Shown: positions 918 through 5,399, counted from the first letter of the stretch. The stretch: DNA of 5,399 bases from a virus (IMGVR_UViG_2671180636_000008), one strand, 5' to 3'. The notes: generated from the letters alone by a model not told the origin. Program-made: numbers and translations.

Positions 918-971
918 TGCTTTTCGCTACATGACCTTTCAGGTTAGTCTGAGAGGTCATCTCGAAAAGTA
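918..971 (+). promoter_or_regulatory. long imperfect hairpin (about 21 bp paired with an internal loop); candidate RNA processing or regulatory structure
   Basis: Inner stem ATGACCTTTCAG (931-942) / CTGAGAGGTCAT (949-960): 12 bp with one G-U pair, 6-nt loop GTTAGT. Outer stem TGCTTTTCG (918-926) / CGAAAAGTA (963-971): 9 bp with one G-U pair. The two stems are separated by an asymmetric internal loop (CTAC / CT). No flanking T-tract. Confidence 0.5.
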
Positions 972-1183: not shown

Positions 1184-2191
1184 ATGACAAATGATATTTA
1201 CATTAATGGCAAAGTGATTGATAGCTTCAGTGACTGGTCGCCACAGACTGAACATCCAGCTATCACTATTCAGCGTAAAGAGCATGACAAGCGTATTGAG
1301 CTTGAGCAATCGCTAAAGATGTCACCAAAAACAACCATCTTTGTGTCTCCTGAGCCTCAAGAGATGCCTGATATTTGCAAGAGTGAAGCATTACTTGAGC
1401 TTGAAAAGAAATATTACCAACTGCTGAAAGAACAGCGCCTTAGATTAGATGACGCTTACAGCAAAGTTACCTTGATGCAATCAGCTATTGAGCCGTCAGA
1501 ATTTGAGATTCAGGATGAATTGTCACAGAAACCATTTGTCTATTACCAATACGAAGATAATGATGGTTTTGGTACTTTTCAAGAAAACGTCGCAGCCGTG
1601 ATTAGTAGTCTTCCTGCTGGACATCGAATTGTGAAGATGGTTAAGGCATCAAGAGGTGCTGGTCAGTTTATTTACATGACTAATAAGAGCGATGAAGAAC
1701 TCGCTGAAATTGCTAGACAGAACATNNNNNNNNNNNNNNNNNNNNNNNNNNNNNNNNNNNNNNNNNNNNNNNNNNNNNNNNNNNNNNNNNNNNNNNNNNN
1801 NNNNNNNNNNNNNNNNNNNNNNNNNNNNNNNNNNNNNNNNNNNNNNNNNNNNNNNNNNNNNNNNNNNNNNNNNNNNNNNNNNNNNNNNNNNNNNNNNNNN
1901 NNNNNNNNNNNNNNNNNNNNNNNNNNNNNNNNNNNNNNNNNNNNNNNNNNNNNNNNNNNNNNNNNNNNNNNNNNNNNNNNNNNNNNNNNNNNNNNNNNNN
2001 NNNNNNNNNNNNNNNNNNNNNNNNNNNNNNNNNNNNNNNNNNNNNNNNNNNNNNNNNNNNNNNNNNNNNNNNNNNNNNNNNNNTCTAAGCAAAAGAATAG
2101 AATCAGGAAAATAGCTAAGTGGTGTCTTGATAAATTACCAAGTGATTGTCAGATTGTTGGTGAAGATGGTAATTATTATCTGGTTAGGTAA
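1184..2191 (+). CDS. hypothetical protein (about 335 aa if continuous across masked block 1726-2083)
   Basis: ATG 1184 with GAGGA 6 nt upstream; the ORF-track start at GTG 1136 is less likely. The frame is open up to the mask, and after it only this same frame is open; stop TAA 2189-2191. The visible N-terminal 180 aa includes a helical-looking stretch (EALLELEKKYYQLLKEQRLRLDD); no family recognised. One gene versus two genes across the mask cannot be decided. Confidence 0.5.
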   Translation: MTNDIYINGKVIDSFSDWSPQTEHPAITIQRKEHDKRIELEQSLKMSPKTTIFVSPEPQEMPDICKSEALLELEKKYYQLLKEQRLRLDDAYSKVTLMQSAIEPSEFEIQDELSQKPFVYYQYEDNDGFGTFQENVAAVISSLPAGHRIVKMVKASRGAGQFIYMTNKSDEELAEIARQNXXXXXXXXXXXXXXXXXXXXXXXXXXXXXXXXXXXXXXXXXXXXXXXXXXXXXXXXXXXXXXXXXXXXXXXXXXXXXXXXXXXXXXXXXXXXXXXXXXXXXXXXXXXXXXXXXXXXXXXXSKQKNRIRKIAKWCLDKLPSDCQIVGEDGNYYLVR

Positions 2192-2231
2192 CAAGATTGG
2201 TTGGGTGAAAATCTACGGGAGAGATTATCGA

Positions 2232-4496
2232 GTGATATCGGTAGTCTTTCCCTTTTTCGTATATGAACNNNNNNNNNNNNNNNNNNNNNNNNNNNNNNNN
2301 NNNNNNNNNNNNNNNNNNNNNNNNNNNNNNNNNNNNNNNNNNNNNNNNNNNNNNNNNNNNNNNNNNNNNNNNNNNNNNNNNNNNNNNNNNNNNNNNNNNN
2401 NNNNNNNNNNNNNNNNNNNNNNNNNNNNNNNNNNNNNNNNNNNNNNNNNNNNNNNNNNNNNNNNNNNNNNNNNNNNNNNNNNNNNNNNNNNNNNNNNNNN
2501 NNNNNNNNNNNNNNNNNNNNNNNNNNNNNNNNNNNNNNNNNNNNNNNNNNNNNNNNNNAAAGCATTTCAGTTTGCCACCAGATTTAATGACACTGTTAAT
2601 CCTCCAAAACAATCAAGGCAACCACGAATTAGCGGAAACAGAGCAATCACAGCAGCGCATAGCGTGAATATGTCTAAGCTTGGTGATATTAATCCGCTGA
2701 TGGCTAAAATGTTTAAAGCACAGTATTACAGCTTAAGCGGTAAGGCTGGTAATATTGGAAGTGAAAAGTTTAACGCTGAACTTGCAAAATTAAATCAATC
2801 TCTTCGTGAAACGTTGAATAAACTCAGGTCACAGACAAAGACCGCCAGCATTAACAATACAAGCGACGCATTTAATAATCTTGCAAGCAATGCGATTAAA
2901 TTATCTGGTGCATTTTACTCTGTGATGGGTGCTCTTAACGCTTACAAGGCCATTATGAATGCAGGTCTTAAACGAGATTCCGCACAGAGAGCCGCTAAGT
3001 TTGTACTTGGTGATAAAGCATCTGAAGCTGAGGTATTTATTCGAAATTTAGCAGACAAGACAGGTCTTAATATCTCTGAAGGGCTATCAAGCTACGCTAA
3101 GTTTGCAGCAGGTGCTCAGGGTTCTATGTCACAGGAACAGACACAGGAGCTATTTGGTAATGCAACGGCTATGAGTCGCTTAATGGGGCTTTCTAACGAT
3201 GAGCTAAACGGCATTTTGAGAGCATTTGAGCAGATGGCGAGCAAGGGCAAGATTCAGGCTGAGGAATTACGTGGGCAGTTAGGTGACCGTATGGCTGGTG
3301 CATTTAAGCTATTCGCTGAAGCATTGGGTATGACTGCTACAGAGCTTGATGCAGCCATGAAAAACGGGAAGGTACTTTCCGCTGATACTCTCCCTAAAGT
3401 CGCTAAACAGATGGGCTTGATGATTGATAAAGCGGGTGGCTGGGCTGAAGTCACTAAGAGCACTCAGACAGCTTTAGGTAAGTTAGCAAACAATTGGGAT
3501 GATACGATGGTGAAAATCTTCTCAGGTTCACAGGATGAGCTAAACGGCTTCTTATCCAGCCTGAGTAACCTGCTTAGTGAAATGGGGATGAGTTCTTCTA
3601 TCGCTGGTGATGCTATCGGTGGACTTATCGACATGCTTAAAGCTGGTGTAGATGATATTCGCGTATTCAATAACACCATTGAAGGCTGGATTTTACAGAC
3701 TAAGAAGTTCTATTACAGCCTTGATGACACTAAACGAAAACTACTTGATGAAGTCGGTGATGGTTTTATCAACTTCGTCAAAGGTCTTGCTATAGCGTTA
3801 TCTGCAAAGACGCTATTCAGTGCTACTACAGGGGTTATGAACCTGACAAGAGCAATCACAACGTTAGGTACAAGAGCTAATCAGGTGGCTGGTCAGGTAG
3901 CTACTGGTAAAGGTGGTGGAAAACTGAAAGGTGTAGCTGGTGGTGTAGGTAGTGCTCTTGCAATTGGTTATGCTGATGACGGTTATGAAACAGCGTTAGC
4001 ATTAGCTTCAATGATTCCACAAATCAGAGGCGTCACTCTTGGTTTATATGCATTGAAGAAAGCACTGGATTTTATGAATCAGGAAGTAGTCAAAAACGCT
4101 AATATGCATCCGTCTGGGGTAGGTGTGGGTAGTGACTTTAATCCCGTGTATTCTGGTGACCCTAATAAACCGAATATGATTAACGAAGGATGGAGTAGAA
4201 TTTTTAGTTCAATGGGTGAATTGTTTAACAATGCCACAATGAATATTGCAAGATTCAATCATCCAGAGTTAAACAACATTAAGCAAGATTCAGCATTAAC
4301 GAGTGCAGATATTCAGGGTCTGAGGGATGAAATTAGTGCTTTGAGTAAGCGTATTCAGGAGCCAGTGAAAGTTTCACTTGGTGGTCAAGTTGTCGTTCGA
4401 CCAGATGAACCATCTTTCTTTACTTTCAATCAATCAGCTAATGACCAGTTCACGCAGGATATGCTCTTAAGTTCAAGCTATCCAGAGGAAGAATGA
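2232..4496 (+). CDS. phage tail tape measure protein (start unresolved: TTG 2127, ATG 2166, GTG 2232 or inside masked block 2269-2558)
   Basis: Frame is continuous from 2115 to stop TGA 4494-4496 if the mask hides no stop. Conserved tape-measure core at about 3244-3413 (GKIQAEELRGQLGDRMAGAFKLFAEALGMTATELDAAMKNGKVLSADTLPKVAKQM). Gly-rich segment GQVATGKGGGKLKGVAGGVGSALAIGY and a hydrophobic stretch ALALASMIPQIRGVTLGLYAL. Position in a unidirectional late-gene-like cluster. GTG 2232 is preceded by GGGAGAG (2217-2223). The first unmasked in-frame ATG (2670) has no Shine-Dalgarno. Confidence 0.8.
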   Translation: MISVVFPFFVYEXXXXXXXXXXXXXXXXXXXXXXXXXXXXXXXXXXXXXXXXXXXXXXXXXXXXXXXXXXXXXXXXXXXXXXXXXXXXXXXXXXXXXXXXXXXXXXXXXKAFQFATRFNDTVNPPKQSRQPRISGNRAITAAHSVNMSKLGDINPLMAKMFKAQYYSLSGKAGNIGSEKFNAELAKLNQSLRETLNKLRSQTKTASINNTSDAFNNLASNAIKLSGAFYSVMGALNAYKAIMNAGLKRDSAQRAAKFVLGDKASEAEVFIRNLADKTGLNISEGLSSYAKFAAGAQGSMSQEQTQELFGNATAMSRLMGLSNDELNGILRAFEQMASKGKIQAEELRGQLGDRMAGAFKLFAEALGMTATELDAAMKNGKVLSADTLPKVAKQMGLMIDKAGGWAEVTKSTQTALGKLANNWDDTMVKIFSGSQDELNGFLSSLSNLLSEMGMSSSIAGDAIGGLIDMLKAGVDDIRVFNNTIEGWILQTKKFYYSLDDTKRKLLDEVGDGFINFVKGLAIALSAKTLFSATTGVMNLTRAITTLGTRANQVAGQVATGKGGGKLKGVAGGVGSALAIGYADDGYETALALASMIPQIRGVTLGLYALKKALDFMNQEVVKNANMHPSGVGVGSDFNPVYSGDPNKPNMINEGWSRIFSSMGELFNNATMNIARFNHPELNNIKQDSALTSADIQGLRDEISALSKRIQEPVKVSLGGQVVVRPDEPSFFTFNQSANDQFTQDMLLSSSYPEEE

Positions 4497-4592: not shown

Positions 4593-5020
<428 letters not shown>

Positions 5021-5264
5021 NNNNNNNNNNNNNNNNNNNNNNNNNNNNNNNNNNNNNNNNNNNNNNNNNNNNNNNNNNNNNNNNNNNNNNNNNNNNNNNN
5101 NNNNNNNNNNNNNNNNNNNNNNNNNNNNNNNNNNNNNNNNNNNNNNNNNNNNNNNNNNNNNNNNNNNNNNNNNNNNNNNNNNNNNNNNNNNNNNNNNNNN
5201 NNNNNNNNNNNNNNNNNNNNNNNNNNNNNNNNNNNNNNNNNNNNNNNNNNNNNNNNNNNNNNGG

Positions 5265-5399
5265 AAGCTGGACTATTCAGACTTAACAGAAGCTGAAAAA
5301 ACCAACGTCACCAATGCTAATAGTAACGCTGGTCGAGTAGCTTCAAAGCTTAAAAAGTACTCAGTGTGCAAAATGGCATCTGAATCGATCGCAGTTTGG
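5265..5399 (+). CDS. partial ORF of unknown function, open to the window end
   Basis: After the mask only this frame is open (KLDYSDLTEAEKTNVTNANSNAGRVASKLKKYSVCKMASESIAVW); the other two + frames stop at 5284-5286 and 5294-5296. Its frame differs from the open frame before the mask. Start unknown (inside the mask, or ATG 5382). Confidence 0.3.

Follow-up and report, generated by a model that had tools for sequence, protein, structure and literature searches.

The window analysed here is the whole 5,399-nucleotide stretch of viral DNA IMGVR_UViG_2671180636_000008, and our subject is a hairpin at positions 918-971 on its + strand together with a short sequence block that overlaps the hairpin's 5' arm. 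Both lie in a 398-nt non-coding spacer, which extends from a small open reading frame (ORF) of 25 amino acids at 708-785 to the AUG at 1184, where an operon begins that includes genes for a tape measure protein (TMP) and a Dit-like protein. The spacer is laid out as a leader. Downstream of a σ70-type promoter it holds, in order, a 5' stem-loop, a weak hairpin, the 918-971 element, a terminator-like hairpin and a hairpin of ~38 bp. We propose that the 918-971 hairpin and the block beside it, which is invariant among relatives, are probably a regulatory RNA element. The features on which this argument draws are the following.

810-838, + strand: σ70-type promoter, TTGACA at 810-815, 17 nt, then TG-n-GATGAT with the hexamer at 833-838; 10/12 match
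846-864, + strand: 5'-terminal stem-loop, GGGAAGAG-CAA-CUCUUCC; -9.9 kcal/mol, z = -3.2
906-926, + strand: mini-hairpin of 8 bp, U906-U913 with G919-G926, pentaloop GCAAU at 914-918; -5.6 kcal/mol
912-926, + strand: invariant 15-nt block GTGCAATGCTTTTCG, unchanged in ~117 loci
918-926 and 963-971, + strand: outer (lower) stem, TGCTTTTCG with CGAAAAGTA, 9 pairs including G919·U970
931-942 and 949-960, + strand: inner (upper) hairpin, ATGACCTTTCAG with CTGAGAGGTCAT, 12 pairs by sequence and repeat finder
1033-1070, + strand (unit 1033-1082): terminator-like hairpin UGAAUGGCCCU...AGGGCUAUUCA, then GCUUUUAAAAAG; -19.3 kcal/mol, z = -4.1
1067-1156, + strand: near-perfect hairpin of ~38 bp just upstream of the ribosome-binding site; -39.4 kcal/mol, z = -8.1

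A sequence-only reading of the window had described 918-971 as a two-tier imperfect hairpin, a 12-bp stem extended by a 9-bp stem across a small asymmetric internal loop, and the sequence itself, the repeat finder and RNAfold all return the same coordinates. The inner stem contains a single wobble, U938·G953, and closes a 6-nt loop, GTTAGT; the internal loop is an asymmetric 4x2, with CTAC at 927-930 opposite CT at 961-962. That wobble was the only one counted originally, and the G·U pair in the outer stem (G919·U970) has to be added to it. The segment 900-990 folds into exactly this two-tier structure at -30.7 kcal/mol (z = -4.5), a value that 0 of 200 shuffles equalled, while 916-973 alone reaches -27.1 kcal/mol (z = -6.5) and the inner hairpin alone -17.9 kcal/mol (z = -4.6). 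An intrinsic terminator is ruled out, as had been held before. The sequence 3' of 971 reads CTCTTGTTCATTCG / CUCUUGUUCAUUCG and contains no T-tract, and the terminator scan does not call the hairpin on either strand. Nor does the hairpin belong to a catalogued RNA family: no Rfam 15 covariance model matches across 900-990 at E up to 1, the only Rfam matches in the window are three weak and unrelated ones outside that segment, and a scan of the window for tRNA and tmRNA found none.

Conservation of the inner hairpin and the invariant block

Relatives of the spacer were collected by several routes. Four loci in IMG/VR were reached through the downstream protein, and a search anchored on the block gave 13 viral loci and four genuine genome loci (Escherichia albertii, Escherichia sp. 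and Citrobacter); L021, an Eubacteriales metagenome-assembled genome, was left out as a chance match of a 20-mer in a terminator-like hairpin. A promoter-only pattern was used as a second search in order to avoid an ascertainment bias toward the block. In total there are ~117 loci with 79 unique hairpin regions and 51 unique cores. A covariance model (R1) built from 18 diverse cores supplied the alignment of these variants, and across the ~117 loci it finds one + strand copy per locus or island at 68-92 bits, the - strand scoring 17-35 bits. The exact hairpin sequence of the window has no match in IMG/VR, where the relatives differ at a few positions; among GenBank phages, neither the spacer (BLAST, near and distant modes) nor the flanking proteins (tblastn) found a match.

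The inner hairpin is a selected RNA structure. Among the 51 distinct sequences in the covariance-model alignment its helix is 98 % paired, with changes on both sides at five of the 12 pairs and on one side at four more; one level, for example, is occupied by U·G, C-G or A-U, and another by A-U or U-A. The covariation score was reached by 0 of 500 shuffles, and sliding the partner strand by 1-3 columns brought pairing down to 39-50 %. By an independent count there are 27 different inner hairpins, each with 9-13 contiguous base pairs, and their loops vary freely (GUUAGU, UAUAACC, CCCACA). Because G·U pairs work only on the + strand, where they fill 86 cells of the helix that would be A·C on the opposite strand, the structure must be one of + strand RNA, which agrees with the direction of the promoter.

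The outer helix gives a different picture. None of its nine pairs changes on both sides and seven never vary, which makes those seven uninformative on selection; of the others, C925-G964 is C·A in 26 of the 51 variants, and the terminal pair is open in 20. The compensatory changes that the sequence-only reading had proposed to look for in homologous spacers are therefore present in the inner stem and absent from the outer one. We regard the outer tier as thermodynamically plausible in the window and as unproven across the family, its pairs being without covariation support.

Invariance, as opposed to covariation, marks the block. Every true homologue from the promoter-only search carries GTGCAATGCTTTTCG unchanged, as do the four loci found via the downstream protein, and all of the block-anchored loci carry the promoter too. 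The four IMG/VR spacers have in common the promoter, a 5' hairpin with compensatory differences, the 918-971 hairpin and an identical 20-nt block, GAAAGGTGCAATGCTTTTCG.

Part of this block is claimed by two pairings. As an alternative to its downstream partner, CUUUUCG in the 5' arm of the outer stem can pair with UGAAAGGU upstream, and this forms the mini-hairpin at 906-926, whose GCAAU loop is the sequence of a GNRA tetraloop (GCAA) plus one U. Since the strand CUUUUCG is common to both, mini-hairpin and outer stem are mutually exclusive, and in the order of synthesis the mini-hairpin is transcribed before the outer stem is complete. Its seven inner pairs are 100 % paired in the 51 variants, and all changes keep pairing (three lead from A-U to G·U and three from G·U to A-U). 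Constrained folding of the same variants favours the outer-stem conformer by >1 kcal/mol in 25, places the two conformers within 1 kcal/mol of each other in 20, and favours the mini-hairpin in six, by up to 5.3 kcal/mol; that maximum belongs to L014 and L030, in which the lower stem is down to ~5 weak pairs. The duplex of ~21 bp reported earlier is real in the window as 12 + 9 bp. It is not established as a family trait, as the outer stem lacks covariation and the rival mini-hairpin is at least as stable, counting the near-ties, in 26 of 51. Because the outer-stem arm has a competing and earlier-transcribed partner, the duplex is one of two plausible states.

Proposed control of terminator read-through and the alternatives

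What stands downstream of the core bears on its function. In at least 86 of 99 unique variants the stretch from the hairpin to the first ORF contains a canonical intrinsic terminator, or two of them, a lower bound because the strict scan passes over bulged versions; these terminators start ~25-30 nt after the hairpin (e.g. GCCCUAAUCAUGAGUUAGGGCGUUUUCUUU), and no σ70-like promoter is predicted downstream of them. If the σ70 promoter drives the operon, a mechanism of read-through is needed, because terminators intervene and no predicted σ70-like promoter follows. Upstream of the terminators no element but the core is universally conserved, and it is the sole constant feature of an otherwise mosaic leader. 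Furthermore, in 104 of the 105 loci with enough sequence, an ORF of ~235 amino acids preceded by a Shine-Dalgarno (SD) sequence lies on the same strand 213-372 nt after the block, and this ORF belongs to at least two gene families. The ORF families differ while the module stays, which suggests that the module is tied to the start of an operon and not to a particular gene.

We hypothesize, with a probability of roughly 35 %, that the core is a cis-acting leader element that governs terminator read-through into the tail-gene operon. Transcription would start from the σ70 promoter at 810-838 (at ~845), run through a mosaic of stem-loops and reach the core, UGAAAGGU-GCAAU-GCUUUUCG followed by the 10-13-bp hairpin, after which RNA polymerase would meet one or two intrinsic terminators ~25-30 nt later. 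The hairpin would be the structured half of the element and the invariant 15-nt block its other half. The core would control read-through of the terminators, and hence expression of the tape-measure/Dit operon, as a processive-antitermination-type or gate element that engages RNA polymerase or a host, helper or island factor in the manner of nut or put, and the exclusive pairings of CUUUUCG, in the mini-hairpin or in the outer stem, would give it two states. An invariant block combined with a covarying hairpin points to a specific interaction at the RNA level. The layout of promoter, conserved RNA, terminator or terminators and structural operon follows the logic of λ nut, HK022 put, λ PR'/Q and P4 PLE, and for this reason we favour read-through control.

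None of these systems is a close match. As in λ nut, a conserved linear block stands beside a hairpin downstream of a σ70 promoter and upstream of terminators, and the mini-hairpin at 906-926 has a pentaloop of the GNRA-like kind found in λ boxB, here on an 8-bp stem; unlike the 5-bp boxB, however, the main hairpin here has 10-13 bp and a freely varying loop. No single-stranded boxA (CGCUCUUA / UGCUCUUUA) lies 5' of the hairpin. The nearest candidate, UGCUUUUCG, matches λ nutR boxA CGCTCTTA at 5/8 positions and the rrn boxA consensus UGCUCUUUA at 6/9. Model R1 does not match λ nutL or nutR, its best score in λ being 16 bits (E = 0.29) at another site.

The put RNAs of HK022 are factor-independent cis antiterminators of ~65-70 nt from a mobile element of E. 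coli (PMC9378689). The core resembles them in size, in its variable distance downstream of a σ70 promoter and in its position upstream of intrinsic terminators, and, in the mini-hairpin conformer only, in having two adjacent stem-loops. It differs in that its stem I is short and without the bulges and triplex of put, and R1 has no significant match to putL or putR in the HK022 genome (15.5 bits, E = 0.39). Antitermination by put works through the zinc-binding domain of the RNA polymerase β' subunit.

In satellite P4, the PLE leader with its CI RNA (C4 antisense, RF01695) likewise belongs to an E. coli satellite-type element, has a constitutive-looking promoter, and is a structured leader that ends at terminators before an operon. 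The short, mutually complementary boxes GAAAGG / CUUUUCG / CGAAAAG recall its seqA/seqB/seqC, but the boxes here are only 6-8 nt, adjacent, and form local hairpins; there is no Rfam match to RF01695 at E up to 1. We discarded a P4-like intramolecular seqA/seqC pairing, as the island has no conserved stretch that could pair with 10 nt or more of the block. The λ late gate, PR'-6S RNA-tR', shares a strong promoter and a short terminated leader transcript ahead of structural genes. However, the site through which Q acts is DNA, located at the promoter, and Q requires no conserved RNA structure, whereas the element here is RNA at a variable promoter distance, and no Q homologue was found.

Several points weigh against read-through control. 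The firing of the promoter, the action of the terminators and the effect of the core on read-through are all things that we infer. The element has no Rfam family, and a search of λ, HK022 and FelixO1 with the covariance model brought up no homologue; scans of the island proteins with domain and family libraries recognised no N-, Q- or other antiterminator-like protein. The boxA-like UGCUUUUCG matches poorly and is predicted to be paired in both conformers, and the U-tract of the window's own terminator-like hairpin is weak. Finally, an unrecognised helper-specific promoter downstream of the terminators could drive the operon, and the unit from promoter to terminator would then be a small RNA in its own right. 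A T4-type late promoter (TATAAATA) in that position was considered and set aside, since FelixO1 has only three such motifs and none at late genes.

FelixO1 has no polymerase or σ modifier of its own, and the passage of transcription through its many internal terminators is unexplained (PMC3185647). It is conceivable that a FelixO1-like helper supplies the antitermination activity. A more elaborate version, in which a helper factor or transcript flips or occupies a two-state core, allows read-through and so yields the TMP and Dit-like protein of the island, would make the core an RNA-based helper sensor gating tail hijacking of virulent FelixO1-like phages; we think it improbable as a complete account.

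If the core does control read-through, it is a new and well-supported RNA motif with 51 distinct variants, strong covariation, an invariant partner block and no Rfam family, and it governs the structural-gene operon of a compact island that is present in ~8 % of complete E. coli genomes and carries its own TMP and Dit-like protein, with 37-68 % identity to their counterparts in virulent FelixO1-type phages. Only a few cis-acting leader RNAs are listed as gating transcription in mobile elements (nut, put, the P4 leader); the core would join them as a non-homologous case and offer a handle on how the island senses a lytic helper, and it would bear on how FelixO1 transcription itself passes many intrinsic terminators. 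As no more than an RNase III site or a stability hairpin, the element would be nothing unusual in phage RNA.

Processing by RNase III was the proposal of the sequence-only reading, made by architecture: the enzyme would cut the ~21-bp coaxial helix in or near the internal loop and split the leader, or an upstream message, from the downstream RNA, with a change in stability or translation. We judge this unlikely, though not negligible. The geometry in the window, a 12-bp upper stem, a 4x2 loop and a 9-bp lower stem at -27.1 kcal/mol, is similar to that of T7 R1.1-type sites, and like the R1.1 and λ N-leader sites the element is an imperfect hairpin of ~20 bp split by an asymmetric loop, without a U-tract, in non-coding phage-type RNA. 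The upper stem stays at 9-13 bp despite complete sequence turnover, which would suit a ruler-type enzyme, and there is no terminator between the upstream genes and the spacer, so read-in transcripts are possible. The site had been placed between genes of a polycistronic phage transcript; it is indeed a non-coding spacer of phage-type DNA, but its setting is that of a 5' leader between a σ70 promoter and terminators. This setting, the flanking invariant block and a lower stem mismatched in half of the variants all separate it from the T7 and λ sites. The T7-like resemblance is one of the window; across the family the lower tier is not maintained: it shows no covariation, has a C·A in 26/51 and an open terminal pair in 20/51, and in L014 and L030 loses to the mini-hairpin by the margin given above. 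RNase III has little sequence specificity, and cleavage leaves the strict invariance of 15 nt unexplained and the terminator problem unsolved. A longer duplex, moreover, lies nearby, and the ~38-bp hairpin at 1067-1156 would by its predicted fold be a better RNase III candidate than 918-971. Pairing is conserved in the inner stem, and so the structure stands, although the assignment of an enzyme does not follow.

A trans-acting small RNA is slightly more doubtful. Here the unit from promoter to terminator (~190-280 nt) would be the functional product, with the block, partly exposed in the GCAAU loop, as a seed for a host or helper mRNA and the hairpin as a scaffold. The layout of promoter, structured body, A/U-rich stretch and intrinsic terminator is suitable, and seeds are typically short, partly unpaired sequences that are conserved to such an extreme degree. 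At 912-925 the block even has an exact 14-nt complement in the ORF94 mRNA of FelixO1 (60067-60080; L148 10067-10080); the match lies on the strand opposite ORF94, so that the phage mRNA is complementary to the island RNA, and a block-specific shuffle gave p = 0.004. A gapped significance test was weak, however (p = 0.03 and 0.23), and three other 14-mers of the spacer also match FelixO1. The phage site is exact in only six of 13 FelixO1-like genomes, in which 84 % of neighbouring windows are at least as conserved, and the island itself conserves no site that could pair with the block over 10 nt or more. The module, furthermore, is never found away from the start of an operon.

The core might also be a generic structural element without a specific partner: a hairpin that stabilises or folds the mRNA, or one that makes RNA polymerase pause, kept only for its stability. 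The leader is, after all, a chain of interchangeable stem-loop modules, and the loops of the inner hairpin vary freely. We give this rather little credence, because hairpin and block are present in every locus, unlike the other modules, and a nucleotide-invariant block argues for a specific interaction.

Less probable again is a link to translation, in which GAAAGG at 907-912 would act as an SD, the AUG at 917-919 would start a mini-ORF (MLFAT*), the conformers would mask SD or start, and a ribosome would melt the hairpin. The SD-like GAAAGG does stand 4 nt before an AUG inside the invariant block, and the mini-hairpin pairs the SD while the outer stem pairs the AUG and codons 2-3. The length of the ORF is not conserved, however, being 5, 9 or ~23 codons by variant; synonymous positions in the block never vary, unlike a coding pattern; and the SD-AUG spacing is short.

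That 918-971, an inverted repeat in DNA, acts as an operator, recombination or packaging site, or forms its structure in opposite-strand RNA, is as good as refuted, because the wobble pairs work on one strand only and the 86 + strand G·U cells would be A·C mismatches in DNA or - strand RNA; in addition the two arms change together, whereas protein-binding palindromes conserve sequence, the model gives the + strand 68-92 bits and the - strand only 17-35, the recombinase gene is >4 kb away, and there is no similarity to FelixO1 DNA.

The mosaic leader, the operon and the island

Features outside the core, with three annotated examples of the island, are as follows.

708-785, + strand: small hydrophobic ORF of 25 amino acids (MTLVILWMTLGLFVGCWVGNTVNKN), at the upstream edge of the spacer
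1184-2191, + strand: first gene of the operon, 335 amino acids, with a good SD and AUG at 1184
2127-4496, + strand: TMP gene (Pfam TMP_3, PHROG 4036, TIGR02675)
L023 5164-15200, L145 10106-20136 and L146 10501-20071: islands

The leader around the core has been extensively rearranged. The distance from promoter to core ranges over ~70-130 nt by gain and loss of whole stem-loop modules, such as GGATAG...CTATCC and ATGTTC...GAACAT (relatives, e.g. L010, L017 and L020), and of units in a (GATG)n microsatellite, of which relatives have 2 to 5. Recombination breakpoints fall within ~100 nt on either side of the invariant block. The 5' stem-loop occurs in relatives in compensatory versions (GAGAGA/UCUCUC, GGGAGAG/CUCUCUC, GGAGAG/CUCUCC). 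From the predicted transcription start site at ~845 to the AUG, the RNA folds at -112.9 kcal/mol (z = -7.9).

The promoter has an A-rich, UP-like stretch (TTAAAAAGC) directly upstream, and its -10 hexamer is CATAAT in most relatives. The UP/-35 block at 798-818 (GTTAAAAAGCTGTTGACAAA) matches the FelixO1 promoter P41 (21502-21522) at 20 of 21 positions, and also matches a second FelixO1 intergenic site at 57901-57916; P41 is the promoter of the morphogenesis gene unit of FelixO1 (PMC3185647). The intergenic regions of FelixO1 and the island leader also have palindromes of the TTTTAAAAG type in common, e.g. AGCTTTTAAAAAGC at 1070-1083 in the window and at 63644-63657 in FelixO1.

The ~38-bp hairpin at 1067-1156, which gives weak miRNA-like Rfam matches, has an apex (1109-1118, CTCTTCTAAG) that is perfectly complementary over 10 nt to 1166-1175 (CTTAGAAGAG), overlapping the SD of ORF 1184-2191. 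Relatives keep a shifted version of this complement (CTTCTAAGTG / CACTTAGAGG), and judged from the pairing potential it is a possible anti-SD switch. We rejected a long-range pairing of the segment after the 918-971 hairpin with the ribosome-binding site, which appears in the minimum free energy fold of the leader, as the flank types assort independently of the first-gene types.

At the upstream edge of the spacer, the 25-aa ORF overlaps the stop of a 110-aa ORF and ends 24 nt before the -35 hexamer. Its amino-acid sequence is conserved in relatives, and the product could be a small membrane peptide, perhaps toxin- or holin-like.

The first gene of the operon has no match in Pfam, PHROG, NCBIfam or PADLOC and is unrelated to the FelixO1 chaperone. 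In most relatives it is split into ORFs of ~236 and ~69 amino acids (e.g. L023 9400-10338). The annotation pipeline PGAP labels the 236-aa protein a transposase in some genomes, a label without support from Pfam, NCBIfam or PHROGs. The TMP gene follows; it probably begins further downstream than 2127. In the interval from the end of ORF 1184-2191 to this likely start, inside the longest TMP frame, lies a terminator-like hairpin (2217-2252, 15 pairs, then TTTTTCGTAT). The TMP is 37 % identical to that of FelixO1, with a common C-terminal LLSSSYPEEE, and the Dit-like protein is 68 % identical to FelixO1 ORF68. At the nucleotide level the Dit-like gene region (4632-5399, match 4677-5020) is ~94 % identical to >200 FelixO1-like (Felixounavirus) genomes, and no other part of the window matches known phages at this level. 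In the window this gene is split into short ORFs (4632-4805 and 4853-4996) and is interrupted by a masked run of N at 5021-5263. The genes for chaperones, TMP and ORF68 are adjacent and in this order in FelixO1. Since the TMP and Dit-like genes resemble adjacent FelixO1 genes, the island operon mirrors part of the FelixO1 tail module.

Of 5426 complete E. coli genomes, 451 (~8 %) have the spacer, always on the chromosome. The three annotated examples are islands of ~10-11 kb, inserted at ymdF|wrbA, at yciI|tonB and inside a DUF72 gene, so that the island occupies at least three integration sites. The order in these islands is a Dam-like methyltransferase, a DnaD-N/HTH protein, three or four small proteins, the spacer, the proteins of ~236 and ~69 amino acids, the TMP and the Dit-like 'baseplate' protein, and the end is formed by a large serine recombinase on the opposite strand. 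No capsid, terminase or tube genes were found in the three, and a PADLOC search of the island for known defence systems gave only an 'orphan methyltransferase' match. Judging by its gene content, we suggest that FelixO1-type phages are the probable target of the island, which would be a satellite or an element of tail interference. The literature search found no paper on the island, on satellites of FelixO1 or on the block sequence, and a FelixO1-related mobile island in E. coli is apparently undescribed. At the left end of the islands, between the host flank and the methyltransferase gene, there is 1.0-1.6 kb of unannotated DNA (L023 3729-5163, L145 9112-10105, L146 8895-10500), which could hold att, ori or further non-coding RNAs.

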